A DNA stretch of 64,000 bases from Marsupella aquatica (taxonomy: Eukaryota; Plantae; Marchantiophyta): assembly GCA_973895155.1 (NCBI GenBank), contig OZ316893.1, positions 16,398,645 to 16,462,644 on the forward strand, written 5' to 3'. Position numbers and translations under genes: made by a program. This document shows positions 35,801 through 59,450 of the stretch, piece after piece (position 1 is the first letter of the stretch; every line of letters begins with the position of its first letter). A model generated the notes under the pieces. It was not told the origin of the DNA, made no database searches, and saw nothing but the letters and a program-made list of their open reading frames with translations.

Positions 35801-36014
35801 GAAGGACGAGGTCATCCGGCGGCTTAGGGAGATGGAAGCCGAGGTGGAAGACATGCAGGCGGCCAAGAAAGCCCAAGATGAGTTGCGGATTAAGCGGCAT
35901 GAACTAAACATCATGCAAGGACAATTGGATGCCGCTCAGTCTGGCAATCAGATTATCAAAGATAAACTGACTCGGACCCAGGGAGAGTTGGCCGGCGCGG
36001 TCAAGGACAGGGAA

Positions 36015-39000
36015 TGTGGTGCGTCCCATGGCTCCCTAAACCCAAGAACCCCCCCAGCTCAAGCCGATTCCTGCAGGTTTCACGCTTGGCTAGGCCGTTT
36101 CCGCGGCTTAGCGGCATGGGACGCTGCTAACCTCCTTCTACTATTACTATTAGCCTTTTACACACATATACTGGATAGATCCTTCATCGGGTCATGAGAT
36201 ACGTAGCCGGCCTAATCTAGGCCTTCCCTTGTCTTCCTCTCCTTCTGGTTAGGTATGTTTGGATTCCGCCGCCGGAATGATCCCCAATAGGCTTGGTTAA
36301 GCCGCTAAGACCTCTCTCAGCTCGACACATCCAACTCTCACTCCCCTGCTTACTTTCCTTCCTCTGTTGGTTGATGTGGGCACTCTTCACACAAGTTAAT
36401 GCGACACACAAATAGCAAAATGACTCCTTCTGACTGAGTCATACCATGCACTTGCCATACAAACAGTACATCTCATACACAAGCTCTGCGAACTAAGCCG
36501 TGAGGCCAACTCTATTCAGCTCTTAGGCATGAGGAAACATGAATATACACAAGGTCACGGTATGACTAACCAAGAGCTTCTCTTACTACTTGATCCCAGC
36601 CCGGCTGGTGCAAACTAAAAACTTGCTAAAGAAGAGGCCCTGAGCTCCCCGCTGCCCAGGTACTTATCCTGGTAGTGGATCCGCCTAATTCTTTGCAGCG
36701 TAAGCCTAACCTACCTAACAGTAATCTACCTGCCCGGATCTACCTATGTACAGCAAGGCAGGAGCACGAGTGTTGCTCCTACCAGTGGAACCGCAATCCC
36801 ACTAAGCTAAGTGTCAGGGCCGCTCCTGGTCCTGATCTTAATCCTAAACTTGGAGATCAGCGCCCGCCCTGCCCACTCACGCCTCCTACCTCCATGTTCG
36901 CCCTTCCTAAAAGGAACGGCGCCCTTGCACCGTCACGACACCGGTGGTGGATCCTCAATGGACGCCCCCAATGCTTCCTCCTCAGCCACTGCCGTTGGTC
37001 CGTCCTCTGACAGATTACCTGCCTCTGACCGAGTCAACTTTTCATCGGCCTGACTGGGCCCACACTCGGCTTCGGCATCGGTTCGGGAATCATACTCGGC
37101 TACGGCCTCAGCCTCGGCTTCAGCCACTGTCTCCCCGGCCTGCTCAAGAGGTGAATCTGGGATACCGGCCTCATTACTGAGTAGTTCGGCTTGGGCCGCG
37201 CCATCCCCACCTTTGGTGATAGCGGAATCTATTGTCGTGTTCATGCCGGAGGTTGGTGCCGGTTTGAGTACGGCTTGAGGGGTCGAATAACCTCCGGACC
37301 CCGAAGGTTTCCGCTTCTTCTTCTTCACTATCTCCACAGCCGGTTCCTTCCCCTTGCCGCCAACGTCCGGCACCGGGCCGTGTGTCACGGCTGGTCCTTC
37401 GGTAATTACCACTCCTGGTAACTGGTTTGCCCCAACGGGAGATGGACCTGATGTAGCTAAGCATTTAAATGCTGCAGCTTGTTTCTTCAGCCGCTCAGTT
37501 TGGTTGTCGGCCCGCCGCTGTAGGTTCTCCATCTTCCTTGTGATTTCCTCCAACTCCTCCTGGGTCTCATCCAGGTCCTTACGTGCCTTCTCCAGCTCGT
37601 TTTTGGCTTCCTCCAATTCCCTGTGGGCTTCCTCCAATTCCTTCTTGGTGGTAGCCCTCTCCTCCTGGGTTGCTCTTAGCTCCTTGTTGAGCTCTGCTAC
37701 AACCTCAGACTCCATGTTATTCATCTTGGCATAAGTCTGGTCGAGCTGGGCGTCCTTCTCCCGCAGGTCGGCCTTGAAGCTGGCCGACAGGGACGCAAGC
37801 TCCTGCTGTAGCGCAATAATCCCTTGATAGGATTTCCCTAACTCGGCCTCCTTCTGCTCAAGGGCTCCGCGGATTTTCTCGAGCTCTCCCTTCAGCGCCC
37901 TTTCCCTTCTCTGAGTCTCCGTCGTGACCCGGTTGTTGACTGCTATATGGGCCTCCTCTGCGTTTCTCAGCTCCTTCTTCCATTTCTCCCTGTCCTTGAT
38001 TGCGTCGGCCAATTCTCCCTGGGTCTGAGTCAGTTTATCCTTGATAATCTGATTATCAGCCTGCGCTGTGTCCAACTGCCCCTGCATGATGTTCAGCTCA
38101 TGCCGCTTAATCCGCAGTTCATCTTGGGCTTTCTTGGCCGCCCTTAGATCTTCAATCTCGGCTTCCATCCTCCTAAGCCGTCGGATGACCTCGTCCTTCT
38201 TGCTTCTCTCTAAAGCCACCGGTTCTTCCAATTGGTGCTTCTCCAACTGCTCCCTATGGAAAAAGGGTCCTACCTCCAACTCCTCCCCAAAGATGCCGAG
38301 CGCAAGTTCCCCACACATCTCACCATACTCCATGGCTCTATTCTTAGCGTAGGTGGAGTAAGTAGAAGTGATCGGCATCGCCCATCGCGGCCTCTGCTCC
38401 CAAGCCGTCTTGCGGATCTCTTCAATCGTGGCTAGAGGTTTGCTTCCCTTTTTGGCTAGCCGCCTGATGTCCTCCGGCCAATCTCCTCCTGGCAAATCCT
38501 TTTCCCTAGCCAGGGCTGCCTCCTCTTCCTGCCTGATTCGCTCCTGAAATTCCTGGGCCGTCTATTTTATGCCGTCAAAGCTCGGGGGAGCAACATCTGG
38601 TGGGGGAGACTCAGGGCTACTCTGCTGGTTGGGGTCCCCTTGTACTACCCTTGGAAGTGTGGGGATAAACCGGCCACAGGTCCTTACTCCTGGAACGTGA
38701 TGGTCCGACCCATAGCCGGAGTTATCATGGCTGCAGTCCTCCACTGCCTCCTCTACTTCTTGGACTTCCGGCTTCTCCCTCTCTTCTTCGTCGGTAGGAG
38801 CTTCAGGCAATTCTGCCTCAGATTCAGAGCTTGAGACTCCCACGTACATTCGAACACCCAGCTTGGATTCTGGCCTGATTCTGCTTAGGTTGACCTCTGG
38901 GGCAGTGTCCTGTATTGGTGCTGCTGCCGAAGCCGGTGCCGGTGCCGTCTTTTCCTTCTCCAGCATTTTCAGCAGATTCTGTATGCTTGGTTGCTGCATC

Positions 39001-40663
39001 GGCAAGTCTTCCTTCTTTGGCCTGAACACCTGCTCGATTGTAGGACTGTCAGGTGGTTGAGGCTTCTCTGCTACCGGCCTCGGTGCTGGAGCTTCCTCGG
39101 GTGCCCTTACCTGCAGGGGAAGTACTGGGGCAAAGGTCTGACCTCTGGCATACCGGCACAATAGCGGCATGTGATAGCCAAGCCGCGACACGCTCCCCAT
39201 GCCGATTACCTGCTGCTCCTCCTTTAAGATCTTCTTCAATTGGTTGAGGAGGTACCCGTTGTAGTCCCAGCTTGGGTCTGGCCTCTCTGCCAGATAGACC
39301 TGTGCCTTGCCGATCTCTGCCCTCGGCAAGTTACAATGCATGGTCACCCGCAAGAAGTCGATCATCTCTCCTATGTGCGGGTTGGTGCAGGTGTTCCGGA
39401 AGAAGCCATTCTTCGTTGATGGCCCGGGGAACGACCAGAACTCTTTGTCAGGCAAGGTCTTCCTAGTATCAACCTTGGTCTTATTGCCTATCGGCAAGCC
39501 AAACACTTCGGCAATCACCTTGGGAGTAAGATAGAAATCCTTCCCATATATCCTCGTGCAATTGGTCTCGGGTTCCCATGACCCCACAAATTCTGATAGG
39601 TCTGAATCCGGCACCTCCGGCTTCAGCCATGGTAATCTTACAAAGGCCTCTAAGCCGGATCCGGCCATGAAGCCTTGGTACTTCTTGGTCTGCATGGCCG
39701 TAAAACATGCATCCTCCTCCCGTGCAAAATGTAGTTGCACCTCCACTGGTAGGGTTGCCGCCCAGCCTTTCCAGGTGTCATCCCTGGTTGGAATGGCATT
39801 AATGGGATCGACCTCCTCCTCTTCGGCTTCTCTCTGCCTCCTACTCTGCTGCTCGGCTGGCTTCTTTGGTGCCGTCGACCTCATTCTTTTTGCCGGGGTG
39901 GCTTCATCGTTGACGGCTCCCTTCCTCTTCATCTCTGCTGCCGTGGAGGTTTCTCCTAGCACCGTTGCCTGGGTCCACCTTTCCGTGCTACCCTTCAATT
40001 CCCTGTGTATGTCATTGCAGTTCTTGATGGCCTCTCGAATGCCGATGATTTTGTCTTCGCAAAACAGAAGATCGTCAAGCTGATTGGAAGTAGGAGTCCA
40101 CAAGAACTCGGCCTTGATGAGTTCGCCTCCTAAGAAAGCCGTCTTCTGCAGCTCCCACAATCGAGCGAGCTCCTGTCGTTCTCGAGCTGCCATTTCTGAT
40201 TCTTCATCCTCGTAAGTCTTGATGTACTCAGTTGCCCGTTCAAACAGGCATCCCCAAAAAATGTGCCGCTTGATTGACGTTGCTCATACCCTCCTTAGGT
40301 CGATCGTTGGTATCTACTCTCTCCCCGAGTGCTTGCCTAAGCAGCTGACAGTAGTTGGCCTCCCGTAGTCGTCTGCCTAGTTCGTGCTCGCAAATGAGCC
40401 ACCATCTCTTGCAAGCGCTCCTTACCCCTCTCCTCTTCCGGTCCTTCCTTCCGTTGATCCTTCCTAGCCGCCGACGCTTAGCGCGCCCTAACCCTAATCG
40501 AGTTTTCACCCCCAACGTCCTTACCTCCGGCCTCGGCCCGGGTTCCATAGTCGCCCCTAATTGTTTATATTTTCCTTGTTTTGTCCCTATACTAAGGTGT
40601 TTCTAGGGTGCACTCCTGCTTTACCCACTTAACTGGCCGAGTGATTCTTGGCTAGGCATCACA
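36015..40663 (-). mobile_element. Family X giant solo LTR copy 5 (4,649 bp), antisense inside the 5' LTR
   Basis: TGTGGTGC at 36015 and GCATCACA ending at 40663. TSD GGGAA at 36010-36014 and 40664-40668. Confidence 0.95.
36933..40548 (-). pseudogene. LTR-borne ORF of copy 5 (~1,200 codons; one frameshift near 40255, one TAG at 38562)
   Basis: ORFs 38562-40193 (543 aa) and 36933-38495 (520 aa) are in the same frame. The N-terminal piece is 40240-40548. Confidence 0.88.
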
Positions 40664-42596
40664 GGGAAAAGTGGAAGCAGGAGCTGAGGGACGCAAAGGA
40701 GGCCCACATAACCGCCAACAATCGGGCCATGGCGGAGACTCAAAGAAAGGAGAGGGCGTTGAAAGGAGAGCTCGAGGATATCCGCGGAGCCCTTGAGCAG
40801 AAGGAGGCCGAGTTAGGGAAATCCTATCAAGGGATTATTGCGCTACAGCAAGAGCTTGCGTCCCTGACGGCCAGCTTCAAGGCCAACTTGCGTGAGAAGG
40901 ACGACCAGCTCGACCAGACTTATGCCAAGATGAATAAGATGGAGTCTGAGGTCGTAGCGGAGCTTGACAAGGAGCTAAGAGCAACCCAGGAGGAGAGGGC
41001 TACCTTAAAATTGGAATTGGAGGAAGCAAAAAAGGAGCTGCAGGAGGGACGGAAGGACCTGGAGGAAGCCTAGGAGGAGTTGGAGGAAACCACCAGGAAG
41101 ATGGAGAACTTACAGCGGCGGGCCAACAACCAAACGGAGCGGCTGAAGAAACAGGCCGCAGTATTTAAGTGCTTAGCTTCATCTGGTCCAACTCCAATTG
41201 TGGGAACTTCGTTACCAGGAGGGGTACTGGCCGAAAGACAAGCCGAGACACACGCCCCGGTGCCGGAGGTAGGTAGCAAGGGGAAGGGACCAGCTACCAA
41301 AATAGGGAAGAAGAAGAAGCGGAAACCTTCTGGGTCTAGGAGTTATACGGCTTACCAAGCCGTTGTGACCCAGGAGGTCAACCCGGCACCAACCTCCGAC
41401 ATGGTCACGACAGTAGATCCACCTGTTGAAGAAGGTGGGGATGGCAAGGTCGAGGCCGGAACAGCTATTGATGAAGCCGAGGTACCGGATCCTCCACTAG
41501 AACATGACGGGGAGGCCGAAGCCGTATCGAAGGTCGTGACCGATGCTGAGGCCGAAGCCGAGGGTCACCCAGTCAAGCCGATGAAGAGTTGACTCGGTTT
41601 GGGGTAGGTAATCTGTCAGAGGACGGACCGACGGCAGTGGCTGCGGGGGAAGCGTTGGGGGCGTCCATTGAGGATCCGCCACCGGTGTCGTGACGGTGCA
41701 AGGGCGCCGTTCCTTTTAGGAAGGGCGGACGTGGAGGTAGGAGGCGTGAGTGGGCAGGGCGGGCTCAGATCTCCAAGTTTAGGATTAGGATCAAGACCAG
41801 GAGACGGCCTTGACACTTAGATTAGTGGGATGGCGGATCCACTGGTAGGAGCAACACTTGTGCGCCTGCCTCACTGTACAGTTAGGTAGATTACAGGTAG
41901 GATAGGTTAAGCTTACGCAGCAAAGTTCTGGACTATCCGTTGCCAGGATAAATACCTGGGCAGCGGGGAGTCCAGGGCCTCTTCTTTAGCAAGTTTTTAG
42001 TTGCACCAGCAGGGCTGGGATCAAGTAGTAAGAGAAGCTCTCGGTTAGTTATATAGTGACCCTTGTGTATATTCATGTTTCCTCATGCCTAAGAACTGAA
42101 TAGAGTTGGCCTCACGGCTTAGTTCGCAGAGCTTGTGTATGAGATGTACTGTTTGTATGGCAAGTGCCTGGTATAACTCAGTCAGAAGGAGTCATTTTGC
42201 TATTTGTGTGTCGCATTAACTTGTGTGAAGAGTGCCCACATCAATGAAGGGAAGTACCAAGGGAGTGAGAGTTGGATGTGTTGAGCTGAGAGAGGTCTTA
42301 GCGGCTTAACCAAGCCAATTGGGGATCATTCCGGTGGCGGAATCCAAACATACCTAATGGAAGACCAGGAGAGGAATACAAGGGAAGGCCTAGAATAGGC
42401 CGGCTAAGTATCTCATGACCCGATGAAGGATCTGTCCAGTATGTGTGTAAAATGTTAATAGTAGTAGAAGGAGAGTTAACAGCATCCCATGCCGCTAAGC
42501 CGCGGAAATGGCCTCGCCGAGGATGAAACCTGCAGGAATCGCCTTGAGCAAGGGGGTTTTCTTGGGTTTGGGGAGCCATGGGACGCACCACATTTT

Positions 42597-42615: not shown

Positions 42616-42751
42616 CATTTCTTAAGCCGTGAGATATGAAGTTAGGAAGGAAGCGTGGGTAATGACTGAACCTACACCGAGAGAGGAAAGAGCGATTCAA
42701 CGGGAGAGAGCTCGTCTGCAGTAGCTCGCCGGGTGGCATGATACACAGCGA

Positions 42752-43639
42752 TTGAGAGGGGCAAAAAGAGCTAGTAGCTCCGTAACTGAAAGTGGCATCG
42801 AAGAAGACATACCAGAAGAAGGGTCGGTAAGGAGAAGTGAGTCTCCAACCGACATGGGGGAACCAGAGGCACGGCCAGACGAGAGGCCAGGGACCAGACT
42901 GAGCCAACGGTCGCGTATTCATTACAAGGCCTTTCATGGAAGAGGAGATGAGGATCCGGACGAATGGTTGGATGACTTCGAAGGAACCGCTGCAGCAAAT
43001 GGAGAATCGGCCATCAAGATGCAAATTCTTCCCGGCTTGTTCAAGGGTGAGGCTAGGCCTTGGTACAGAGCATTGGACGTGGAAGATCAAGCCATCTGGA
43101 ATACTTTCAGATCACTATTTGTCAAAGAGTTCAACCCATTGGAACTTCAAAGTTAGCAGTGCTGAAGTTGGGACGACTTCGGTTCAAGGAGAACAAATCC
43201 TTGAGGAAGTTCCTGCAACGCTTCCAAAAGCTGGTAAGACGTACAAAGACCAATGCATTTGAAGGTATGCAACTTCAATGGTTAGTGAATGCTTTGCCAC
43301 AGAAGATGAGTTTGCAATTAGGAAGGAGAATCCAGAGACTTTAGCCGAGGCAATTAGAGATATTCAATTATACATTAATGCAGATATCACAAGCCGGAAG
43401 AAACAGCTTAAGTTTGAGAGTTCCTCATCGGAGGAAGGATCAACCCATAAGAAAAACGATAAGAAAAAGAAACATTCTAAGAAGTCAAGAAGTGATAACT
43501 CAAGCTCAGATAGTGGAGGTAGCAAGAGTGATTCATCTTCTAGTTCTGAAGAAGAAAAAACTAGGAAAAGGAAGGGCAGAAGGAGGGGGAAGATGAACTT
43601 TATACTAGTCATGTTCGGCATGTGGCTGAGGTCAGACCA
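42752..43639 (+). pseudogene. gag N-terminal/capsid part of the X element, frameshifted
   Basis: FHGRGDEDPDEWLDDFE...LFKGEARPWY...WNTFRSLFVKEF is a retrotransposon gag motif set. A Ser/Lys-rich linker follows. Confidence 0.8.
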
Positions 43640-46184
43640 TGTCAGGGAGAAGTAGAGTATTTGTAGTTTGCTATAAAGAACCAAAAACACACTTAAAGGT
43701 CTTCAAACTCGGTATTCGTTCCCGTAAAGAACAAGATGGGGTTGATTTGATACATAAAAACACAAATGAGAGTTTAAGAACTCTCTTTAACACATAGTAA
43801 TCAGGATTGATTACTTTACTAAGGTATTTTGAAGATCGCTCCACAGCGGTGAGTGGTTTTTAATGACAACTCAGCATCATGTAACCATAAATTAATGAAA
43901 AGGGAATGATTAACAAAACACAAGGAAAAATATCTCAAAGTATGCTAAGGGAGTCTGGAATAGACCAAGGTTACTCCTTAGACATAAGTCAAAATGAAAA
44001 GACTTAAGGATTCAAATCCATATTGTTTTTCAGATCTAAACTGCTTACTAGAGTACCTTTTAAAATGCCGTCAACATGTCTTATCCTTTTTTTCTAAGTG
44101 GTACTCAGATAAGATCTAAAAGGTAGCTACTTCAACATTTAGATGGTACTAAGCAACACGAAAGAAAATCCATCAATTTCAATGAGACTTAAACTCAATG
44201 AGTTAACTCCAAGAACTCAGGAGATTGTAATGAGTCACCAAAGAGGAATCTGTCATCAGATCTCATAAGATTTACACAATTGGAATTTTACTTCCCATGA
44301 TTTATTCAAAGGATTAAACCACAAGAAGGAGGAAAGTCTTCTCCTGGTGTCAAGCTTGATCTCGAACTCTTAACATTCATGATCAACTGGCAGAACACCA
44401 AGGAAAGGCAAAAATTGCTAAACTTTACCATAAACTACACTAGTGGTGGAGGGGTCTTATAGTAAAAATCTACAGAGTAAGAGGTCACAGGGTCGAAGAG
44501 ACATGCCTCTTCATACCCCTCAAAATTTTAAAATGGCGATTCAGTAAGTGAAAAGCCGGAAAAATGGCTAAGTATAAACTCGTAATCGGAAATCTGTCGG
44601 AACTCGTAATCGTAAACTAGTAACTCTTAAACTAGTAAAAACTAAGTCGTAACTCGTAATCGCGGTAAAGTAAAGACTTGATGAATTCAACTATTTTTAA
44701 CTTCCTAACTATAAGTCAGAAAACTCTGAGATTTTTCCGGGAGGTTTTCCTAGGTATAGACTATACACTAAAGAAGTATGACAGCTTCCAAAGCTCTAGA
44801 ACGCAATTCTAAAAATCAGATAAGATGCACTACTCTAAAAACTAACTAAAAACACTTAAAGACTTCTTCAAGCTTGCTGTCGGATGTCGTCTGGTTCCAG
44901 CAACTCCACAAGGGTAACAATTTGGTTCTGAGTAACCTCCATCAGTTCAGCTTGGCGTGGGGATCCTCTGGAGTATGGTAGGCACCTCAGTTGTCTCTCA
45001 AGATACATCAAAGGCATCCTCTTCATCAAATAACATGAATCTATACGAAGAGCTTCTCTGTACATCCCGATCACATCATAGTTGTTGCAGGTAGCAGCAT
45101 ACACTTGGGGATAATGAAACAGGAACTCATCACTACTCATCATCCTGGAATAGAAGGGTCAAAGTCTCCATCTGACATCTCTGAAGTATCGGTTGAATTC
45201 AGCTAGAGTCTGAGAAGTGACATTATTCCAGATCCTCTGTTTCTCAGCCAATGTACTGGTTGAAACAAGGGTAACCTTGGGTCCTTGTGGTATGTAATCG
45301 TGTTGTAGAGTAGTAGACTTCTTGCTCTGCATCAGGAAGGAAACCACAAAATCCAAGGCATAGGCTGCAAAGTTTCCAAAGTATGCCAGAACTAAGTCTA
45401 AATCCTCTACCTCTACATCACCTTGGAGTAGCATCATAGCAAGAATAGGCCGAAAGTATATTGAGTCAATCCAGAACTCATCAAATTGTGCCATTTCCAC
45501 TCTAGAAGTACCAAGACACCTAAGATCGAAGATGTAGCTTGCCTCAGTCTTCTTTAGATAGTAGTATCTCCAGAACTCTCCAACCGGTGGTTTGTTGGCC
45601 TGCATTATTTTGCAAGTGGTGGCATACCTGTGCACTTCTGACTCAGGACGTCTAGGGTACCTGCTTTCGATAGTAGCATTCCTGGGGGTTTGGGTGGACG
45701 AGGTGACCACTGCCACTAAATTTGGTTTTGATTTTAGAGCTACATTAACATTCTCAAATCCTTGCCTTGGGGATGACCCAAGAGAATTTTCATAAGATCT
45801 ATAAGTGTCACCATCTGAGGGCGGATCAGAGTCTTCAGGAAGATCCTTTCGAACATAAGGATGCTCATACTGTGACTGATGGTAGGGCGGTCCTTCAGTG
45901 GGTTCATAGTTGGAGTCAGGACTGTAAGGGGGAAAACGTGGACTAGGAGAAGGGGTAGCAGTGGGACATCGCTGCACCAGGTTGCCAACTACAGAGACTA
46001 TCTGCCGAGGATCACACTGCAATATCTCCAGTAGATCATCCACAATAGCTGCACAGCTAATATTGTCTGTTAATGGAACAAGGTCACCTGATTGAAAGGG
46101 GGTCTGTTGAGTAGCAGGGGTGAGAGTCACATATTCCACTGGTGTTGACTCTCCTGGAGGAGAAGTCATCCTGATAGGGCTTAA

Positions 46185-46605
46185 TGTTGGGTATTTACTC
46201 TTACGTCTAGGTTAGGTATGGTGTGGTTGGTACAACAACGTGGGTTGGTACAACTACGTGGTTAGGTACAACTACGTGATTAGGTACAACTATGTGGTTA
46301 GGTACAACTACGTGATTAGGTACAACTATGTGGTTAGGTACAACTAAGTTGCACACTATATCATAAGAGGCATGTGTGCTTGGAGAGGTAGAACCAAGGC
46401 TCATTGTTATGGAGCCACTTGAGAGATAGGGAGAGCTTACACTGTGGAGACTCGGTATAGCCGACGGGCTTAGAGTTTAGTAAAGCTCTCTTGTGTGTTC
46501 CCGTGGACGTAGCCTCAAGGAGGTGAACCACGTATCTCTTGTGTCGACTATTGTGCGTTGGATGGTTCATGGGCTTGCCGTTGCGATCGTCGTCTATGCT
46601 CAACA
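46185..46605 (+). repeat. copia 5' LTR (421 bp) with an 18-bp tandem array
   Basis: Direct repeat of 52265-52721. Array unit GRTTAGGTACAACTAYGT. Confidence 0.97.
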
Positions 46606-47759
46606 ATTGGTATCAGAGCATGCTTGGGAGGTGACGTGTGTTCGTGACGGGATTTCATGACGGTTTTTCCAGCGTTGAGTGTTGGTGGATTTTCCAGAGT
46701 TCCATCGCATGGAACTTGGAGTTTATGGGCTCAACGGATAGATCAGGGCAAGAGCTTTCTAACGGTGTGAAGAAATCGTTGAACGGAGCTCGTGGTGCAG
46801 AGAGATCTAAGTTTTCGTCGTTCTGGATTTTGTGAAGAAAGTTGGCAATCGACTCGGAGGGAGAAGCGTCAAGTGTTTTGACTCAACGGAGAGATTGAGG
46901 CAAGACGATTGTTTTTGAGTCCGGGATTGGCTCTTTGATGCAAAGAGGAAGGCTAAGCAAAATCAATTACCTTGTTGGACTTGGTGACGGCACCAAGTGC
47001 AATTGATCAACATTCGTTGTTGACAAGGTACCATTTTTTTCTCTTTGAAAAACTGATTCGAAATTGGCTATGGCAATTGAGAGAAATCTGTCATCTTTAC
47101 CAATTTTTTTCTCCCTCGTTCTTTCCTTGTTTTGGGTGCTTCTTATATCGATCTTCATCGCCTCGGAGTCTAGTTTCCAAATCTGAGATCGGATCTTGAT
47201 TTAGTCAAAACCCGAGTGAGATATCTTGCGTTTGGTGTCGAGGGGTACATTCTGCCGTGTGTATTTTCTGCGCGCGCGACCAGATTTCGACGACGAAGGG
47301 TGGTAGGGGGTTTTGGGGGTTCGAGGACACATGTCAGCCCCTCGATTGTTCTTCCAAAATTCCCACAGGGCCTGTACAAGGGTCATAGAATATTCCAAAA
47401 AACCAGAGAGCTATTTTTTGACCGTCCGACAAAGATTTCATCCGCCGAACGATAACTTTTTTGGTTATTTTTCGGCGAGGTCGTAGCCATTGAAGTTGGC
47501 AATGCAGCGCACCAATCACATCGCAATTCCGACAACGGGTTGTACTTGGTATTTCGGTTATTCCCTGAGGTGGTCAAAACGGGGGAGTTTCCCAAGGTTT
47601 TACCCACCTCGACCGAAATTTGAATAACTTTTCCGTCAAATTTCGATTTTGATTTTGGTTTTCAGTATTGGACTCCTAGCTTTGTGGGCTACGCGGCGGT
47701 GTTGAGTTTCGAGTTTTTTGAGAAGTTGTGAAAAACAACATTTTTTGTGACTTTCTCAT

Positions 47760-48800
47760 ATGAGTGATTCGGAGGAATTTTTCGAAGACGTGGAACTTGA
47801 AGCACGAGGATCACCGCGGCGGTTTCAGGGGCAGAGAGAGGAGCAGGAGGAAGAGCACGTGACACCGATACCATCACCGGTGCGGCGTGTGGTGGAGGAA
47901 GCAGTACTACTACCGGAGCTCACGGTAGTGCCAAAGAAGAAGATGGGGACTTTCAAGCTTGGGGGACCCAAGTATGAAGTGACAAAGTATGATGGGCGCT
48001 CTGACTACTTGCTATGGGAGAAGCAGGTGAAGGGAGTGCTCTATGCGTCAGGGATGGGCCAACTGCTGAGCACTCGTGAAGACGATGTTGATGAGAAACA
48101 ATGGGACCGCATGCAGGAGCAGGGAGTGTGGTGTGTTACACTCTATCTCATGCCTCCCATCATCAAGCAGTTAGGTGCACATAAGGATTGCATGTCCTTG
48201 TTTGCGGAATTGCAGAGCAAGTATCACCGCAAGGAGTTGTCGAACCGGCTCTACACTTCCTACAAACTGATGAGTTTCAGGATGAAGGAATCTGGTACGA
48301 AGTTGCAAGACCATGTGGATGCTTTCAACGACATGGTCGTTGACTTGGAAAACCTTGGGGAGACTTTGAATAATGAGACGAAGGCTCTGCAGCTTCTTAG
48401 TTCATTGCCTCCATCTTACCAGTCCCTATCACGAGTGTTGTTGCATCGTGATAGGGATACCATTTCATACAATGACGTGGTAAGTTCTCTGCTTAGTGAT
48501 GATCTTCAGCAGAAGATGCACATCACGTCACAGCCTTCATCATCTGGTGCTGCCCTCAATGTTAACCGTGGGAGGAGTATGCAGCGACCAACTGGGGACC
48601 GTAGAACCCAGTTTAGATCTAAATCCAGATCTAAGTCCAAGGGTAAATCCCCTCAGAGGAGGCAGGTGACATGTTGGAAGTGCAACCAAGTTGGACACTT
48701 CAAGCAAGATTGTAAGGGAAAGGCAGCGGAAACTTCATCGGCAAATGTGGCTAGGGCTGATGGAGAAGCTGATTTACTCAATGATGAGTATGTTTTATGA
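47760..48800 (+). CDS. gag: copia gag (346 aa) with CCHC zinc knuckle
   Basis: KYDGRSDYLLWEKQV, LLSSLPPSY, CWKCNQVGHFKQDC. Confidence 0.92.
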   Translation: MSDSEEFFEDVELEARGSPRRFQGQREEQEEEHVTPIPSPVRRVVEEAVLLPELTVVPKKKMGTFKLGGPKYEVTKYDGRSDYLLWEKQVKGVLYASGMGQLLSTREDDVDEKQWDRMQEQGVWCVTLYLMPPIIKQLGAHKDCMSLFAELQSKYHRKELSNRLYTSYKLMSFRMKESGTKLQDHVDAFNDMVVDLENLGETLNNETKALQLLSSLPPSYQSLSRVLLHRDRDTISYNDVVSSLLSDDLQQKMHITSQPSSSGAALNVNRGRSMQRPTGDRRTQFRSKSRSKSKGKSPQRRQVTCWKCNQVGHFKQDCKGKAAETSSANVARADGEADLLNDEYVL

Positions 48801-51800
48801 AGCCGGGGGTATGCCCTGTGCACGTCATCTAGGAGAGCAGATGATGTGTGGATTCTTGATTGTGCTTGCTCTTTTCATATTTGTTACATTCGTGAGTTTT
48901 TCAGTTCTTACTCTGTTTCAAACGGTTCAGTTCTGATGGGAAATGATCACTCCTGTCAAATTGAGGGAATTGGGTCTGTGAAGATTCAAATGTTTGATGG
49001 CGCTGTGCGCACAGTATCCGGAGTCAGGTATGTACCTGGCATGCGTAAGAATCTGATTTCACTCGGTGTGTTGGATTCAAATGGTCATCAATGGAACGTT
49101 ATTGATGGTGAACTTCAAGTCAGGTCGGGAGAGACAGTGATTTTGAAGGGGAGTAGACAAAAGAATTTGTATGTGTTACAAGGCAATACTGTATGTGGAG
49201 AGGCCAATGTAACCAAGTCTCACGAGGAGATGACTCAACTGTGGCATTCACGGCTAGGCCACATGAGTGAGAAGGGTTTGGCTATCTTACGGAAGAATGG
49301 ACTCATTTCTGATTTGCAATCTTGTAAATTAGAGTTTTGTGAGCATTGCATTCTTGGAAAGCAGCATCGTCGTGCTTTTGGTGTTGGAACTCATCGTTCC
49401 AAAGCGGTTCTTGAGTACATACATAGTGACGTGTGGGGTCCATCCCCGACTCCCTCACACTCTGGAAAGTTGTACTATGTATCATTTATTGATGATTACT
49501 CAAGATTTGTGTGGATTTATTTCATGACGCATAAGTCTGATGTCTTGTCCATTTTTAAGAAGTGGAAGGCCCAGGTGGAGAATCAGACTGGAAACACGAT
49601 CAAGTGTTTGGATACAAGGGTGAAGAGTCTGAGGTCAGACAACGGCGGGGAGTACACTTCAATGGAATTTGAAGAGTACTGTTCAGAACAGGGGATAACT
49701 CGCCATCTCACCACAGTTTATACTCCGCAGCAGAATGGTGTCGCTGAGAGGCTCAATCGGACACTGTTGGAGCGGTCACGGAGTATGTTGAGCCAATCAG
49801 GTTTACCACAAGAATTTTGGGCAGAAGCTGTCAATACCGCAGCTTATTTGGTAAATCTTTCTCCTTCTAGTGCTATCAATTTCAAAACGCCGTTTGAGAT
49901 GCGCTATAAGCGGCAAGCAGACTATCATGGCTTGGTAATTTTTGGAAGTGATGCATATGCTCTCACACCAAAGCAGAATAGGACCAAGTTGGATCCTACC
50001 TCCAGGAAATGTGTTTTTCTTGGGTACCAGAGTGGTGTGAAAGCCTATAGGCTATGGGATCCTATTGCCTGTAAGCTCGTTGTCAGTAGGGATGTTTCCT
50101 TCAATGAATCCAGATTATTGAAGGAGGGAGAGAATACTCAGGTCTCCCGTACTGACAAAGGAAAATCTCCTATCCCGGATCTCGTTGAGGGGGAGATTGG
50201 TTATGAGGTGCATGACCGGAGAGAAGGAGTTGCTCCAATTATGGAGCTGGTTCCTGTGCCAGAGGAACCAGAGGAGTTTGTTGATGCTGGTGAGCAGCAA
50301 GTGGATGCTGTTGAGCTTCAAATTGTACCAGCACACGCAGATCAACCGGAGTCATCGGCTAGAAGAACATCTGGTCGCACTGTACGCGCTCCATCAAGGT
50401 ATGGACAGTGGGTTGATTCATCTCAACTGCAAGAGGATGATTTTACAGCTGATGATGAGGGTGATGCGTTAATTTTGGAAGAAGGAGAACCTTCTTCATT
50501 TCATGAGGCAAGTGCTTCAAAGGAGAAGCAGAAGTGGACTGCAGCAATGCAAACGGAGATGCAGTCACTAAAGGACAACAAAACTTGGGAGCTTGTTAAG
50601 CTGCCTAAGGGTCAGCAAGTGGTGGACAACAAGTGGATTTACAAGCTGAAGGATAATTCCATAGGAGGTGGATCGAAGGTCTACAAGGCTAGATTGGTAG
50701 CAAAGGGATTCACACAAGAGAAAGGTGTGGATTACAATGAGGTCTTCTCACCAGTTGCTAAGTACTCTACAATACGACTATTGTGTGTACTTGTTGTAAT
50801 GTTTGGTCTGCTCCTAGATCAGATGGATGTTGTCACAGCTTTCCTCTATGGCACATTGGAAGAGGTGATCTTCATGAGACAACCGCTAGGTTTTGTGAAG
50901 AGAGGACAGGAGGAATTGGTTTGCAGATTGCTGAAATCCTTGTATGGGTTGAAGCAGTCACCAAGACAGTGGAACAAGCGGTTTGACGATTGGATTCGGT
51001 CACAAGGTTTTCACAGAAGTGTATTTGACCCTTGTGTGTATTTGAAACCGGTGAAGAATGTTGTCTTTGGGTTTATTATTTTAGTACTTTATGTGGATGA
51101 CATGCTAATTGCAGCCAAGGATAGGTCTGAGATTGTTAAGCTCAAGGCACTGCTTAGTGCAGAGTTTAAGATGAAGGACTTAGGGCCAACTAAGAGGATT
51201 TTGGGTATGGAGATCACTAGGGACTTGGAGGCTGGCAAGCTATGGTTGACGCAGAGCAGTTATGCGAGGAAGGTAATTGCAAGGTTCAACATGGAGAATA
51301 GCAAGCCAGTAAGTACCCCGTTGGCTCCACACTTCAAGTTATCATCAGCGTTCTGTCCTACGGATGACATAGAGAAGGGGTTGATGTCAAAGGTTCCATA
51401 TGACAAGGCAGTGGGGAGTCTCATGTATTTGATGACTTGCACTAGACCTGATCTTGCCATGGCTATGGGCAAGGTGAGCAGGTACATGTCGAATCCAGGG
51501 AAGGTACACTGGGAAGCAGTGAAGTGGATTATCAGGTACTTGAAGGGTACCGTGGATCATGGTCTTTTATTTGATGCGAATGCAAAGAATGCTAGATCAT
51601 TGATTGGCTATGTAGATTCTGACTATGGACAAGATTTGGACCGAAGGAGATCAACAACAGGATACGTGTTCACACTTGGCGGTGGATGCATAAGTTGGAG
51701 GTCTACTTTGCAGAAGTGTATTGCTCAGTCTACTACAGAAGCGGAGTATGTTGCAGCTGCGGAAGCAGCAAAGGAAGCGATTTGGTTGGATAGACTTATC

Positions 51801-52073
51801 ACTGAAATGGGATTGCCACAGGGGAATGTGAAGCTCCATTGTGATAGTCAAAGTGCGCTCCACCTTGCTGTGAACCAGGTGATGGACAGCAGAGTGAAGC
51901 ACATTGACGTCAGGTACCATTTTATCAGGCAGGCTGTGTCTGATAATTTGTTTGAGCTAGTCAAGATTGATGGTAAACTCAACCCGGCTGACGCATTTAC
52001 CAAAGTGATTCCTTTGGAGAGTTTCTCTAGACACCGTGACGTATTGCAGGTTTTGCAATTGCATCACAAGTAG
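48801..52073 (+). CDS. pol: copia pol (PR-INT-RT-RNase H), in frame with gag after a single TGA
   Basis: WILDCACSFH, LWHSRLGH, HSDVWGP, RSDNGGEY, QNGVAER, YGLKQSPRQW, LYVDDML and NPADAFTK in an uninterrupted frame. Confidence 0.95.
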   Translation, partial: SRGYALCTSSRRADDVWILDCACSFHICYIREFFSSYSVSNGSVLMGNDHSCQIEGIGSVKIQMFDGAVRTVSGVRYVPGMRKNLISLGVLDSNGHQWNVIDGELQVRSGETVILKGSRQKNLYVLQGNTVCGEANVTKSHEEMTQLWHSRLGHMSEKGLAILRKNGLISDLQSCKLEFCEHCILGKQHRRAFGVGTHRSKAVLEYIHSDVWGPSPTPSHSGKLYYVSFIDDYSRFVWIYFMTHKSDVLSIFKKWKAQVENQTGNTIKCLDTRVKSLRSDNGGEYTSMEFEEYCSEQGITRHLTTVYTPQQNGVAERLNRTLLERSRSMLSQSGLPQEFWAEAVNTAAYLVNLSPSSAINFKTPFEMRYKRQADYHGLVIFGSDAYALTPKQNRTKLDPTSRKCVFLGYQSGVKAYRLWDPIACKLVVSRDVSFNESRLLKEGENTQVSRTDKGKSPIPDLVEGEIGYEVHDRREGVAPIMELVPVPEEPEEFVDAGEQQVDAVELQIVPAHADQPESSARRTSGRTVRAPSRYGQWVDSSQLQEDDFTADDEGDALILEEGEPSSFHEASASKEKQKWTAAMQTEMQSLKDNKTWELVKLPKGQQVVDNKWIYKLKDNSIGGGSKVYKARLVAKGFTQEKGVDYNEVFSPVAKYSTIRLLCVLVVMFGLLLDQMDVVTAFLYGTLEEVIFMRQPLGFVKRGQEELVCRLLKSLYGLKQSPRQWNKRFDDWIRSQGFHRSVFDPCVYLKPVKNVVFGFIILVLYVDDMLIAAKDRSEIVKLKALLSAEFKMKDLGPTKRILGMEITRDLEAGKLWLTQSSYARKVIARFNMENSKPVSTPLAPHFKLSSAFCPTDDIEKGLMSKVPYDKAVGSLMYLMTCTRPDLAMAMGKVSRYMSNPGKVHWEAVKWIIRYLKGTVDHGLLFDANAKNARSLIGYVDSDYGQDLDRRRSTTGYVFTLGGGCISWRSTLQKCIAQSTTEAEYVAAAEAAKEAIWLDRLITEMGLPQGNVKLHCDSQSALHLAVNQVMDSRVKHIDVRYHFIRQAVSDNLFELVKIDGKLNPADAFTKVIPLESFSRHRDVLQVLQLHHK

Positions 52074-52264
52074 AGTTTTCTTAAACATTCATTGTAATTA
52101 CTGATATATGCTCTTCCTCATTCCTATGTATTAGGCTACGGCTTAGTTCTGGTTTGCTCTAGTTAGAGAGGGAAACCGGTTTGGTTTCTGTCCAGAACTT
52201 CCCGCTGAGGGATCATATACATTGGCAGTATTACTCTCCCCTAGACCAGAGTCAAGGGGAAGAT

Positions 52265-52721
52265 TGTTGGGTATTTACTCTTACGTCTAGGTTAGGTATG
52301 GTGTGGTTGGTACAACAACGTGGGTTGGTACAACTACGTGGTTAGGTACAACTACGTGATTAGGTACAACTATGTGGTTAGGTACAACTACGTGATTAGG
52401 TACAACTATGTGGTTAGGTACAACTACGTGATTAGGTACAACTATGTGGTTAGGTACAACTAAGTTGCACACTATATCATAAGAGGCATGTATGCTTGGA
52501 GAGGTAGAACCAAGGCTCATTGTTATGGAGCCACTTGAGAGATAGGGAGAGCTTACACTGTGGAGACTCGGTATAGCCGACGGGCTTAGAGTTCAGTAAA
52601 GCTCTCTTGTGTGTTCCCGTGGACGTAGCCTCAAGGAGGTGAACCACGTATCTCTTGTGTCGACTATTGTGCGTTGGATGGTTCATGGGCTTGCCGTTGC
52701 GATCGTCGTCTATGCTCAACA
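52265..52721 (+). repeat. copia 3' LTR (457 bp)
   Basis: Direct repeat of 46185-46605 with two extra 18-bp units. Followed by TSD CTTAA. Confidence 0.97.
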
Positions 52722-54343
52722 CTTAACTGGTCAGGGAAGGGTGACTTCAAACTGACAGCTTCCATTCTTAAATCATTGACAGCATCGAAAAGACCATCAT
52801 CACTGCAACTAAGAAGAGATGTCAACTTATCAATGAGTTGCTGATTCGCTTCTGCTTTCGGAGGTGTGGAGGAGTTGGTCCTTAGGTTGACAGTTGTAAG
52901 AGCCAGTTCAGCAACATCGGCTGATTGCTCAGGAGAATCTCTGTCTTCTCCAGCTCCAGGTTGATCTCTCATATTAACTCTTGGTGAATACACCACGTTA
53001 TGCAGAGGGTGTCGAACCAGCTCTAAGTTATGAGCAGGTGTCCTATCTAATTCCATCTCAGCATCCACATTCTGATCATGAGAATCCAGGGGAACAGCAT
53101 CCACTGGTTCTTCCATACTTAGGTCTTCTTCAATGCCTAACTCAATCAGGAGCAGCCCTCTTTCCGTTTTCTCCTCTGGATATAAACAATCATAAGCATG
53201 ATAGAGTTGAGACAAATAAATCTGCAGATGAGTGGGTCTACCTGCCTTCATGGTCCTCACCTGATCCTTCATCACATTGAAAATTAGCAGGGCCCAATTC
53301 ACCTGGACAGATCCACTGTGTGCGGCTACAATTGTATTCACCAAAGCCACTGGACAGATGGTTGGCTTCTTCGGGTGTAAAATGGGTACTAGAAATTCCA
53401 GAAGCACTCTCAAATCTGGATAAATACACTGTGTTAAATTCCAGCCATTGGTGAGATTGCGAGTCCCCGAGAAGTAAGGTGTAGATAAATCTTTCTTCTT
53501 TGAATACAATCCTTCTCCTTCTAAAGGGCAGCGGAAGGCATAAGCAATTTGTTCCATAGTCCATAAGCTGGGTCAAGCTCGAATAGTCCGTCGAAATTCA
53601 GGAGCAAGCACTGACCCCTTTACAAAATCCTGCAAATATGTGTCGAGCTCTACTTCCCAAGGAACGGCAAGTAGATGCTCCAAACCTAGCTGCTGTAAGG
53701 AAGTTCGTAAATTTGCATAGCTATCGGGCGCTGGTGGAATTCGGGCGACTATGCTCTTAGGAATTGCCAGAGTGTCAACTCGGTACTGTTCATCAATGCC
53801 GAGGTTCGCCATAGCGCTCATCCGTTATGTTGAGTGCGCTAAGGAGTGGGGAAGCTGGTAGAATCAACAGAGGTGGCAGGAATTAAGTCAGGAGTGAGCG
53901 CCTGAAGTCTAATTTGCCTTTTCTTCAATTCGCGTTCGCCATCCCATTGCTAAGTCCCGTTGGAAGTAGCCGTAAGACGTCGCGATCATCGGTCGCCAAC
54001 TCGTAAGGCACAACTCGTAAAGCCCTAACTAGTAAGTCGTAACTAGCATACTCGTAACTAGTATACTGTCGCAACCCCGTAACTCGTAACTAGTAACTAG
54101 TAAACTCGTAACAGGAGTTTACTCGTTAACTTACTTTAAACTTGGGAACCGTAACTTGTAGACAGAATGCTATCTCCGTTATGTTATCAACAATTAGAGG
54201 TTAAACCCCATAAAAAATTTAAAAATTTTCAGTTTCTTCATGATTTTGGAAATACCCACTACTTACAGTATTTTTTAGGGGATGCCGCTGATAGTGTTTT
54301 CGGCATCAGTGAGACTGGAGCACGAGACCTATCCAACAGACCT

Positions 54344-56098
54344 GCATCTCTCTGGTCAGGATTAAGGAACAATCCGGGAGAAATGTATCCTCGGATTATT
54401 CAAAATCCGTCAGTACCTCCTAGGCCGAATGTGCAAAGATTTGCGGCATGCTATAATTGTGGTCAACCTGGTCATTTTGCTAGAGAATGCCCGAATGCAC
54501 GCAAACAAGGTGATGGACAACCAGCTCAGCTATGTATGGGATGCCGACAGGAGGGCCACCTGCTAGGACAATGTCCTACGTGGTTGGCAGGCATGGTCGC
54601 AAACCATAAGCTCTTGCCAGTCAAGGTCTTGCCACCAGGTACTACCCCCGGAGGAGTTCAAATCAACCACATCAAACTCGGATGGCAAACGGATGCCGAG
54701 GCAGAGTTCGGACCATCTGATGATGAGGCCGAGGCCCTATCAACCTTCTCAGAAGAGGATTTGGATCATGATTGCTATCGGGTCTCTACTCGATCTACTA
54801 GAAGGAAGGAAAGGTGGGATGGGCTGGCCAAAAATAAAGGGAAGGATAAGGAAGAAAGAATCGACTCTTCGTCAACATCAACAGAAGGGGAAGGAAAGGC
54901 GCCGGCAACACAGGTAAGCCATGAGCCCACCAGTGAGCCCAATCCTTCACAGGACAGCGACTTCAATCGGGATCACCCTAAGTTGTTCTACCCCTCTATT
55001 ACGGCTAGTGTTAAGGAACAATTGCGAGAATTAGAAACCCTGGAGAATACCGAAGCCATAGCCAAGGATGTGAAACGAGAAAAAGTGTTGTTTGCTTCAG
55101 AGGATCCAATGGCTGTGGAAACCAGCATGGAAAAACAGGCCGAAGCCAAGATAGAGACACCGCCAGAAGAGAAGCCGATAGTTCCCTATGACCTGGCTAA
55201 AGATGTGCTAGAATCTAGAGTCTCGGCAACCGTAGGTCAACTATTGAAAAATAGCCCGTACTTCCGGAAGCAGTTAAGAAAGGCGATTCTCAGCAAGCCG
55301 AGATTACCCAAGGTAGCAACCAAATCCGATGTGCTGATGATAGAAGAAGATCAAGGAGCCCCAGCATTACCATTAATGATTCAAGGAGAAATATTATTGC
55401 GAGTACCCATTGATGGAGGATCAGGGGTATGTATTATGATTGATTCAACAGCAAAAGGATGGGGTCTAACGCCGGAGATGACTGGAAGAGTGTTAAACAT
55501 GGCCAATGGGTATCAAGTCATTCCCACGGGAGTGTTAACCGGCATCAAAACGGAGATAGGAGGTATCTTCTTTAGCATTAACTATGTAGTAATGAAGCCG
55601 GTAAACCCTACGTCGTTCCGACTATTAATTGGCAGGCCATGGCTGTACCTAGCCAAGGTAATAGAGGATTGGGGTAAGAAGGAGTTCACCTTTGGGGCCC
55701 CATCTATCACGGTATCTTGGGACACCAAGGATGACCGTAGGAAAAGCATCAGGGAGATAGATGGGTACGACAGTGGACTGGAATCCGCCGATGAGGTACG
55801 TTGGCTAGAATGCCTCACTGACCTAACCGAAGAAAGTGTCTTTGGACCAGAGGTACCCCCCAGCGGATTATGGCAAGAACCTATGGAAGGTGACTTGGAG
55901 GAAGGTGAAGAAAAGGTCGAGGGCTGCTTTACCATAGAATCCACCTTTTTAGCTTCAATCCCGGAGGAAGCACCAAAGGTGGACCAATTGGATGAAACGG
56001 TTAAGTGGGGAGCTACAACAGGGACCGTGGATTTTCCTCAGGCGTTGTGGCAGAGCCGACAGGATCCACAACGCCGTCTATCCCCGGCAACAAATTAA
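54344..56098 (+). pseudogene. X element gag C-terminus (two CCHC knuckles) plus aspartic protease
   Basis: CYNCGQPGHFAREC, CMGCRQEGHLLGQC, IDGGSG and LLIGRPWL. Confidence 0.88.
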
Positions 56099-56209
56099 AT
56101 TACAAGGGGATCGTCTTACAAGCCGATCTCAAGGGCAGAGCAAATTGAGGCCCTACTAGAAGCCGGAAGAGCACGACGGCCTGACCCTCAGGAAGCAGGA
56201 ATAGATGAC

Positions 56210-59200
56210 ATGCACGGGAAGAATCCAAAACCGAGTCAGGAAGGGAAGCCAACAACTAAATCAAAACCGAGCAGAACGGCAAGGGAACAGTCTGTTGAGA
56301 ACCAAGGAGAAATTAAGTCAACCAACTCGGCTAGTACTGCCAAGATTCCAGTCTATGGAGGTATGAGACTGGAAAGGCTGGAAGCCGAGCTGGACCCGAA
56401 TTTGAAGAAGCAGATTAATATGATCCAAGCATGGCAATACCGGAAGCTTGACTTAGGAGAAGGAAGGGAACTGAACTTAGGGAGGGACCTAACACCTGAG
56501 CTCGAGAAGGAGATCAGTGAATTACTAATTGAATTTCAGGATGTCTTCGCATGGAGTCACCAAGATCTGAAGGGAGTAGACCCAAAACTAGGAGAACACC
56601 GAATTGATCTCATGTTAGGGGCCAAATCATTTCGACAACCGATTCGACGGATGAACCCTAAGTATTCCCTGATGGTAAAAACTGAAATCGACAAGCTAGT
56701 AGAAGCCAGATTCATCACTCCAGTCCTACACTCAGACTGGGTGTCTCCAATTGTGATAGTTCCCAAGAAAGCTGGACCCGATGGTAAACCAAAGATCCGG
56801 GTTTGTCAGGATTATAGAAAGTTGAATGAGGCTACGTTAAAAGACCATTTTCCTTTACCCTTTACTGATATGGTACTAGACATGGTAGCCAGTCATGAAC
56901 TATACTCATTCATGGATGGATACTCTGGTTATAACCAAATCAGGATTAGGCAGGAGGACCAAATCAAGACGGCCTTCATCACGGAATGGGGGATCTATGT
57001 CTTCAATCGTATGCCGTTTGGACTCTGTAACGCACCAGCAATGTTCCAACGATTAATGGTGAACATTTTCCACGACTACTTGAGAAAATTCATGGAAATC
57101 TTCATTGATGACTTTGCAGTGTTTGGGAAGGCATCAAAACATGCTAAATACCTCAGGAAAACCTTCATGAGATGCAGAGAGGTAGGTCTCAAGTTACACC
57201 CCGATAAATGTTTCTTTGGAGTAACAGAGGGTGTGCTACTAGGTCACAAGGTATCAAAGAAGGGCATTGAGATTGATAAAGGTAAGCTAGCAGTATGGCT
57301 AGATATCATGCAACCTAAGAACATAAAGGATGTGAGATCCTTCTTGGGGTGCATTGGCTATTATCGCCGGTTCATCAAGGACTTTGCCAAACTAGCTTTA
57401 CCGTTAACCAACATGCTCAAAGTAGGTGCAGACTTTGAACCCACACCAGAACGAGTAACAACAGTACTAGAATTAAAGCAAATGTTAGTAGAGGCCCCAG
57501 TCATGATAGCACCAGACTGGAACAAAGATTTTCATGTCTTTGTAGATGTCTCAGGCTTCTGTATCGGCTTAGTACTAAGTCAGTTGGATGAGAAAGGAAG
57601 GGACCATCCCATATACTTTGCAAGCCGCCAACTTGCCGATGCCGAACGCAATTACTCCACCACAGAAAGAGAAGCATTAGGAGTCATTTATTCCTGTAAA
57701 AACTTTAGGCATTATTTACTGGGGTACAAAGTAATCTTTCATACCGATCATGAAAGTTTGAAGTACCTAGTAAATAAGCCGGACCTTACAGGCAGGGTAG
57801 CAAGATGGATTTTGCTATTACAGGAGTTTGACTACGAGCTAAAAATCAAGCCAGGAAAGCTACACGCCAATGCCGACTTCTTTTCAAGGATCACAGGTGA
57901 ACCTGCCACGGATTGCATCAATGATCGATTTCCCGACGAGGAGCTATTCGTTGTGGAAATAGCTGATACATGGTACCCTGAGATTTTACAATTTCTCAGC
58001 ACATCCAGATTACAGCCAGGGCTAAACAGAGAGCAAGCCGCAGTCTTTCTACGGAAGTCAGATAGTATCAGTGCATTAAGGGCATCCTACACAGGTATGG
58101 AATCAGCGGCACGATTCAAAGGTGTTTGGAAAAAGGAGAGGTAAAATGAGTCCTACCGGCTATGCATGGGGAGGAAGCCGGAGGACATTTTGCTCCAACA
58201 ACCACATCTAAAAAGATATTAAATTCCGGTTACTAGTGGCCCACCTTGCACAAGGATGTCTATCAGTTTATCAAACAATGCGACCCTTGTCAGCGAGCGG
58301 GAGGACCAAGGGCATCCACAAGACATCCACTGCACCCTATTCTACCTCTGGCACCATTTGAGAAATGGGGTATTGACTACATGGGACCTCTGAAACCATT
58401 GACCCATCCTCGAAAAAACAAGTACATAATCCTGGCCACGGATTATGCAACTAAGTGGGTAGAGGCCAGGCTGACAACGAAAGATGATGCAATTACTACG
58501 GCTTGATTCATGTATGAGCAGATCTTCACCAGGTATGGCGCACCCCTAGAATTAGTTAGTGATAGAGGAACCCATTTTCTGAATGATATAATTAGTCGTT
58601 TAAATGAGCAGTATTTAGTTAGACATAGGCCTACTACTCCCTACCACCCAAAGGCAAATGGGTTGACAGAACGAGCAAATGGAATTATAGGAAAGATATT
58701 GAACAAAACCATAGCTCAGAACAAACTTGATTGGGATGATAAATTGTTTGTTGTTGTTTTTGCTTACAATTTAGCCTATAAATCCACTACCGGTCATACA
58801 CCCTTTTTCTTAACCTTTGGACAGGAAGCCCTGGTACCCATGCAACTTGAGATTCCTACATTTCAAGTTACAATTGAGGAGAGAACCTCAAAGGAGGAAA
58901 GCCTAAAGGAGCGAGAATATAGGTTAGAAGCTTTTGAGGAGGCAAGAATGATTTCAGTCGAGAGAGTAGAATATAGACAGAATACTATGAAGCAACAATA
59001 TGATAAAAGGTTGAAACTAGTTAGTATTCACATAGGAGATCTTGTATTACTTTATGATAGTAGGTATAGTAGGTTTCCGAGGAAACTTTACACTTGCTGG
59101 TTAGGACCTTTCAGGGTATCAATGAAGTTCTCTAATGGCTCTGTGCAATTGGCCAACATTACTGGAGAGGTGTACCCAGTTTGCATCCATTACGACCGCC

Positions 59201-59280
59201 TCAAGAAATACTGTATGGACGAAGATGAAGTTGTTTGCGAGGACGCTTCACAATTAAGTGGGGAGCTATGTGATGCCTAG
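56210..59280 (+). pseudogene. X element RT-RNase H-integrase (non-chromovirus, Athila/OTA-like motifs), with a frameshift and stops in INT
   Basis: DYRKLN, DHFPLP, MDGYSGYNQI, FIDD, NADFFSR, INDRFPDEELF, GGHF, WGIDYMGP, SDRGTHF and GPF. No chromodomain and no extra RNase H is evident. Confidence 0.92.
59256..59268 (+). promoter_or_regulatory. Polypurine tract of the X element, lying within the integrase coding end
   Basis: AAGTGGGGAGCTA immediately precedes TGTGATGCC at 59269. Confidence 0.75.
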
Positions 59281-59450
59281 CCAGGAATCACTAGGCCAGT
59301 TAGGTGGGGAAAACAGAGGTGTACCCTATAAACACATTAGTATAGTAACAAAAACAAGGAAAATATAAACAATTAAGGGTGACTATGGAACCCGGGCCGA
59401 GGCCGGAGGTAAGGACGCCAGGGGACAGAACACGATTAGGGTTAGGGCGA
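59269..59450 (+). repeat. Start of the 3' LTR of the X element
   Basis: About 182 bp matching 33210 onward, with ~6 substitutions and 1 indel. Confidence 0.93.

Follow-up and report, generated by a model that had tools for sequence, protein, structure and literature searches.

We analysed a 64,000-nucleotide stretch of Marsupella aquatica DNA (contig OZ316893.1, positions 16,398,645 to 16,462,644; the window), a nest of long terminal repeat (LTR) elements in which the host is a gypsy element with a 4.7-kb LTR (family A). Between the two halves of the host gag lies a 4,064-bp insertion, element B, which carries a broken minus-strand open reading frame (ORF) of about 800 codons. Judged from its sequence, this ORF is a distant relative of the ORF carried inside the host LTR (LTR-ORF), to which it is linked through a shared N-terminal domain (N-domain). 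The whole is best explained as a broken accessory gene in a likely solo LTR, with an N-domain of predicted VANC/plant mobile domain (PMD) fold that would serve anti-silencing, an explanation that we hold with about even confidence.

An interrupted ORF in element B and its intact relative

Removal of a young Ty1/copia together with one copy of its CTTAA target site duplication (TSD) joined four minus-strand ORF fragments (53821-53576, 53572-52727, 46184-45162 and 45158-44871) in one frame, confirming the coordinates and the frame proposed in an earlier note on this DNA. The frame contains two premature stops, at 53573-53575 and 45159-45161, and its two halves were read separately with X at the stops (365 and 437 codons). 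In the 5' half the shared N-domain (about 53150-53790) is followed by an acidic linker and a short helical motif. The 3' half begins with a second short helical motif and continues through a Pro/Ser-rich linker into a conserved orphan C-terminal domain (C-domain, about 44871-45650).

Searching with the N-domain returned one natural uninterrupted protein colinear with both halves, the 808-aa P0003. P0003 was identical to the 5' half at 264/370 positions (71%) and to the 3' half at 307/437 positions (70%), with the C-domain at 78-80%. Five proteins, from contigs of 3.4-3.9 kb, make up its cluster, and three of them are full length at 808 aa. The base at 53575 differed from the window in nearly all contig depth in 4/4 runs, and the stop at 53573-53575 is therefore private to the window copy. 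Together these comparisons identify the frame as a real gene that was recently broken in the window copy.

The C-domain had no relative but P0003 among 149 N-domain matches, and a C-domain search that covered shorter proteins only gave 0/113 candidates. Its Atlas matches were mixed and all below 0.9, terpene-synthase-like helical clusters included, and its structure model, built from 5 sequences, reached a pLDDT (predicted local distance difference test score) of 36. In Pfam scans, neither the ORF halves nor P0003 nor 54 relatives gave anything relevant. The two short helical motifs resemble each other in P0003 (residues 326-360 and 411-445) and share a central Cys; by eye, a like motif is present in P0011, the extra protein of a complete gypsy described below, and ahead of the coiled coil in other family members.

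The interrupting copia has LTRs (46185-46605 and 52265-52721) that are 2 substitutions and one 36-nt array indel apart. These LTRs contain an 18-bp tandem array with a two-unit difference between them. The copia is nearly intact, with one in-frame stop (48798-48800) between its gag and pol frames.

Homology of the two N-domains

Profile, hhalign and shuffle comparisons gave significant similarity between the N-domain and the LTR-ORF, bearing out the proposal that the two share a domain beyond chance. A profile of 121 relatives was run on 808 window frames, and five LTR-ORF copies ranked next after the element B ORF itself (E 1e-6 to 1e-4; best reversed control 0.18). This profile excluded P0100, a repeat-driven match, and the 28 of 149 matches with fewer than 140 domain residues; its closest member reached only 17.5 bits against the family-A domain. 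Alignment of the two domains with hhalign gave a probability of 92% and an E of 6.3e-7 over 113 columns, with a score of 47.4 as compared to a maximum of 21.9 in 40 column shuffles (shuffle probability at most 3.5%). In the pairwise alignment the domains scored 61, which none of 1000 shuffles reached (best shuffle 60). Against this, an unrelated downstream part scored 59, reached by 3/1000 shuffles, making the pairwise test weak when taken alone. Of six motif pairs matched by eye in the earlier note, the first four fell inside the significant profile alignment and the last two were recovered in the pairwise alignment only. The absence of nucleotide similarity noted there was upheld, as the unit and the host LTRs gave no DNA match (blastn, word 7, E up to 1).

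The N-domain family comprised 282 clusters at 50% identity (E 0.001 or better), and none of 20 clusters looked up had an informative name. Similar unnamed proteins are present in liverwort and moss annotations. The nearest Atlas clusters are Streptophyta. Many N-domain relatives run on into a shared coiled-coil-like tail; the element B protein has instead its two short helical motifs and the C-domain. A search for the family-A domain among longer proteins gave 0/777 candidates, which is weak evidence. The LTR-ORF shared domain had a dN/dS of 0.10-0.13 (six pairwise comparisons of four copies), which on sequence grounds places the host domain under purifying selection. This selection, the 282 clusters and the presence of P0011 in a complete gypsy bear out the suggestion that these accessory proteins of retroelements form an old and diversified family.

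Element B is a separate insertion in the host gag

Element B spans 10,606 bp with the nested copia and 4,064 bp without it. Contigs over both junctions depart from the window at 54267/54276 and 43659 and enter the opposite gag flank, giving the empty site, and the host gag runs in one frame across it. Such contigs were found in runs X2, X3 and X4, with none from X1 among the matches listed. The ORF had been described as antisense inside gag. The antisense position is real, and it is that of a nested 4,064-bp insertion with its own TSD and not of an overlapping gene, because element B has its own TSD and TG..CA ends and gag is continuous at the empty site. Were the ORF instead a genuine antisense gene belonging to the host gypsy, in a gag intron or spacer, it would also lie on the opposite strand between two gag halves; the ends of element B and the continuity of gag in contigs of 3/4 runs make this barely credible. 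The sequence thus gives the antisense position an ordinary reason, and the home of the gene in giant LTR-type units of two families is what is unusual.

Element B shows the marks of a solo LTR: TG..CA ends, a TSD in the size range of 4-6 bp, an empty site and the lack of an internal gag-pol. From these ends and by analogy with family A, the simplest reading is that element B is likely the solo LTR of a second gypsy-type family (family B). It would probably be read on the minus strand, which places the ORF in sense within the U3 region, presumably under its own promoter. No full-length family-B element was found, a P0003 search of metagenome contigs gave no locus, and no gag-pol flanks were visible among the loose ends listed in window contigs. 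Seven comparisons with the LTR of the complete gypsy contig L001 or the 3' part of the family-A LTR gave no signal for the orientation of element B. Separately, a second B subfamily is suggested by contigs of 2,114 and 1,775 nt (runs X2 and X4), whose match to 53124-53795 contains 137 differences.

The unit might instead be on the plus strand, with an older 778-bp LTR (43662-44439), a primer binding site (PBS)-like site and an antisense 5' extra ORF in a longer terminus, or be a non-autonomous element moved whole by a gypsy integrase. A 17-nt inverted match (76%) closes 43662-44439 and a PBS-like TGGTGGAG stands at 44444, features that may be chance or an older LTR, and the leftmost 350 bp have far more contig depth than the ORF, though depth is not copy number. 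Nor did any relic polypurine tract (PPT) rise above background behind the element B ORF, a result that fits the plus-strand arrangement and weighs against a solo LTR with the gene in U3. However, 7 inverted pairs of this kind occur in 2.5 kb, at the level of chance, the unit is not closed by another copy of the 778-bp part, and in both family A and L001 the homologous gene stands in sense at the 3' end. We consider these alternatives quite unlikely and retain the minus-strand solo LTR.

Proposed entry of the gene into the LTR

The contig L001 is terminally redundant and represents a complete gypsy; it carries P0011 in sense, after pol and before a 1-kb LTR. This is the classic 3' extra-ORF position (PMC7264820, PMC6317226 and PMC11728184). 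The host pol is 55% identical to that of L001 over 546 residues. Pfam reported neither a chromodomain nor an additional RNase H on the host pol frames scanned (58145-58506 fell outside the scan), and lack of both is a criterion for the Athila clade (PMC6317226).

PPT-like sites are present on both sides of the P0011 ORF in L001 (3762 and 6565). Family A uses the pol-proximal PPT, and the best PPT-like window was located just behind the LTR-ORF stop in 3/3 LTR copies scanned. The extra gene may at first have been a 3' extra ORF of Athila type; had plus-strand priming then shifted to a PPT upstream of it, gene and old LTR together would have become part of U3. We infer this route with good support for family A and none directly for family B.

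MMTV (mouse mammary tumour virus) sag and lentiviral nef are retroviral genes in or overlapping U3. Like them, the genes described here have a coding frame inside the LTR that is duplicated at both ends and retained in solo LTRs; the proteins, however, are unrelated, and at 800-1,100 codons in plant-type gypsy elements they are far longer.

The position of P0011 also equals that of the env-like ORF (PMC7264820), and in the older reading of Athila sense 3' ORFs the product would be an envelope-like membrane protein. One 19-residue C-domain window does reach a hydropathy of 1.73, but P0011 has no window above 1.3, the shared domain gives a soluble globular model that matches a DNA-bound protein, and a library of predicted viral structures gave no match at E 0.001. 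An envelope function is highly improbable.

Predicted fold of the N-domain

The N-domain was modelled from an alignment of 79 N-domain matches, mostly short ones, and the P0003 domain. Among the limited set of solved structures compared, its best match was VANC21 (PDB 9lnj) at 9% identity, and the N-domain is predicted from this model to have the VANC/PMD fold. The link to PMD runs through VANC only.

Kinship with PMD, Transposase_32 and ATHILA proteins, as raised in the earlier note, held at the level of fold and features and failed at Pfam thresholds. Transposase_32 (PF20167) was present in 23/30 of the nearest Atlas clusters with a score of 0.91, but 160-162 of 256 features were shared; ATHILA ORF-1 (PF03078) was present in 3/30, on 17% of members. 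Transposase_32 at gathering score did not match P0001, P0003 or the LTR-ORF, and on family members it was found in 1/80 at E 0.005. The PMD (PF10536) and ATHILA ORF-1 models gave no match in scans of P0001, P0003, the LTR-ORF and relatives.

The likeness to Athila 3' extra ORFs (PF20167/PF03078) lies in L001, an apparently non-chromovirus gypsy whose 3' end carries an extra ORF in sense, and in the nearest Atlas clusters. A sunflower Athila ORF carries a Transposase_32 domain and a predicted nuclear localization signal (PMC11728184). Unlike Athila ORFs, the gene here is fully enclosed, by a 4.7-kb LTR in family A and by a solo-LTR-like unit of 4.06 kb in family B; the family-B C-domain is without known relative, and no Pfam match reaches threshold. 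The system differs from VANC of VANDAL (MuDR) elements in its encoding context, an LTR retrotransposon, and in its low identity, single-exon ORF and lack of arrays in family A. As with the PMD proteins (gypsy PMD-A; host MAIN, MAIL1 and MAIL2), the extra ORF is gypsy-borne (PMC5418596, PMC6317226), and PMD-C is reported to be structurally similar to VANC; PF10536, however, is not matched here.

Motif arrays and a possible function

The 9-mer AACTCGTAA occurs 7 times in one orientation, in two non-coding clusters flanking the element B ORF, as compared to at most 4 copies in 200 shuffles. The word length was chosen after looking: a 7-mer was borderline (8 copies against a shuffle maximum of 8 in 100), followed by 8- and 9-mer tests. 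The downstream cluster precedes, by about 110-200 nt, a TATA-like CTATAAGA (minus strand, near 44465), which is outside the strict pattern used. VANC21 binds a 9-base motif that forms same-orientation arrays in the non-coding DNA of its element, and it induces methylation loss (PMC5735166). The N-domain would bind short motifs of its own element and so keep element B transcribed against host silencing; the same anti-silencing idea has been raised as an open question for Athila (PMC12844716). There was no motif-array excess in two family-A LTRs or in L001, and arrays in tandem are in any case frequent in the vicinity of extra ORFs (PMC11963269). In L001, clusters of a AGCGCTAC-like unit were seen at 636-706, 5059-5131, 6739-6803 and 7991-8024, one of them inside the LTR, with a count within shuffles.

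We lean towards sequence-specific DNA binding by the N-domain. That the product is a DNA-binding factor which protects or activates its own element is about as likely as not, with another nuclear role as the main rival, and anti-silencing or transactivation as the outcome is more tentative, falling somewhat short of even. The C-terminal halves, a coiled coil in family A and the orphan helical domain in family B, may be exchangeable effector or oligomerisation modules. The same gene, with the same origin and fold, could have another job, dampening its own element much as chromatin is regulated by MAIN-type PMD proteins, guiding integration, or acting on element RNA or particles. Host regulators share the VANC/PMD fold (PMC13547354, PMC5418596); the domain occurs in family A in the absence of motif arrays; and targeting would fit the two cases of a family-A LTR inside a family-A LTR and element B inside a family-A gag. 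Nesting is, however, common in repeat-dense DNA without targeting, and the same-orientation 9-mer arrays in non-coding DNA of element B match the VANC pattern (PMC5735166). We regard another job as possible, though rather unlikely, and keep self-protection or self-activation as the preferred function.

Extra ORFs are common in plant gypsy elements and their function is an open question (PMC7264820 and PMC6317226). For this unnamed ORF family the VANC-like fold now provides a lead, and a candidate 9-base target next to the gene together with an intact natural protein allows the anti-silencing idea to be tested directly in a retrotransposon. Genes of 800-1,100 codons lie whole inside LTRs and survive in solo LTRs, and the relic PPT would be a footprint of gene entry that helps to explain 4-5-kb LTRs. 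We found no paper on an LTR-borne gene arrangement in plants, or tying Transposase_32-like ORFs to VANC, in a literature search that left out most subscription journals and supplements. An unlikely further extension is that gypsy retrotransposons have their own VANC-type sequence-specific anti-silencing, in which an ancient protein of VANC/PMD/Transposase_32 fold, brought by PPT shift into giant LTRs in at least two families, co-evolves with motif arrays of the same LTR and solo LTRs act as self-contained expression cassettes. If true, retrotransposon extra ORFs would be the likely older home of the VANC/PMD fold and every solo LTR could protect or activate its family in trans.

Organization of the window

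Coordinates are collected in Table 1. No tRNA genes were found in the 64-kb window.

Table 1. Features of element B and the surrounding host gypsy (window positions)
Feature	Position	Strand	Remarks
Host 5' LTR (family A, about 4.7 kb net)	33210..42592	+	LTR-ORF, then PBS; split by reverse family-A solo LTR
Family-A solo LTR	36015..40663	-	TSD GGGAA; LTR-ORF 40283-36933
Relic PPT-like site	36889..36924	-	9 nt behind LTR-ORF stop, inside family-A LTR
Host gag, 5' part	42725..43661	+	Frameshifted, cut by element B; Retrotrans_gag E 0.0015, below cut-off
Left 5-bp TSD of element B	43657..43661	+	GTATT
Element B, 4,064-bp insertion	43662..54267	.	TG..CA termini, TSD, length, empty site in contigs
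Motif cluster downstream of ORF stop	44577..44661	.	3 copies of AACTCGTAA, same orientation
Accessory ORF, 3' half	44868..46184	-	Premature stop 45159-45161
Young Ty1/copia interrupting ORF	46185..52721	+	TG..CA ends, TSD CTTAA both sides
Accessory ORF, 5' half	52727..53821	-	365 codons; premature stop 53573-53575
Motif cluster upstream of ORF start	53998..54112	.	4 copies of AACTCGTAA; candidate binding sites or internal promoter
Right 5-bp TSD of element B	54268..54272	+	GTATT
Host gypsy remainder	54269..59268	+	gag zinc knuckle, protease-like stretch, reverse transcriptase, RNase H, integrase, PPT at pol end
Host 3' LTR start	59269..59447	+	Truncated by another LTR element

Four further family-A LTRs stand alone with 5-bp TSDs (77-9622, 1545-6367, 20905-25692 and 36015-40663), each with an LTR-ORF; in the last copy the shared domain occupies 39830-39090 and the C-terminal half is a coiled coil. 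A family-A LTR in reverse inside another family-A LTR was seen twice. Inside the host 3' LTR, an LTR element at 59440-62675 has 448-bp LTRs that are 98.7% identical and only a 769-codon RNase H-integrase frame. A short frame at 14763-15473 resembles a CACTA transposase fragment, and 9871-13949 is a decayed copia-type pol remnant.

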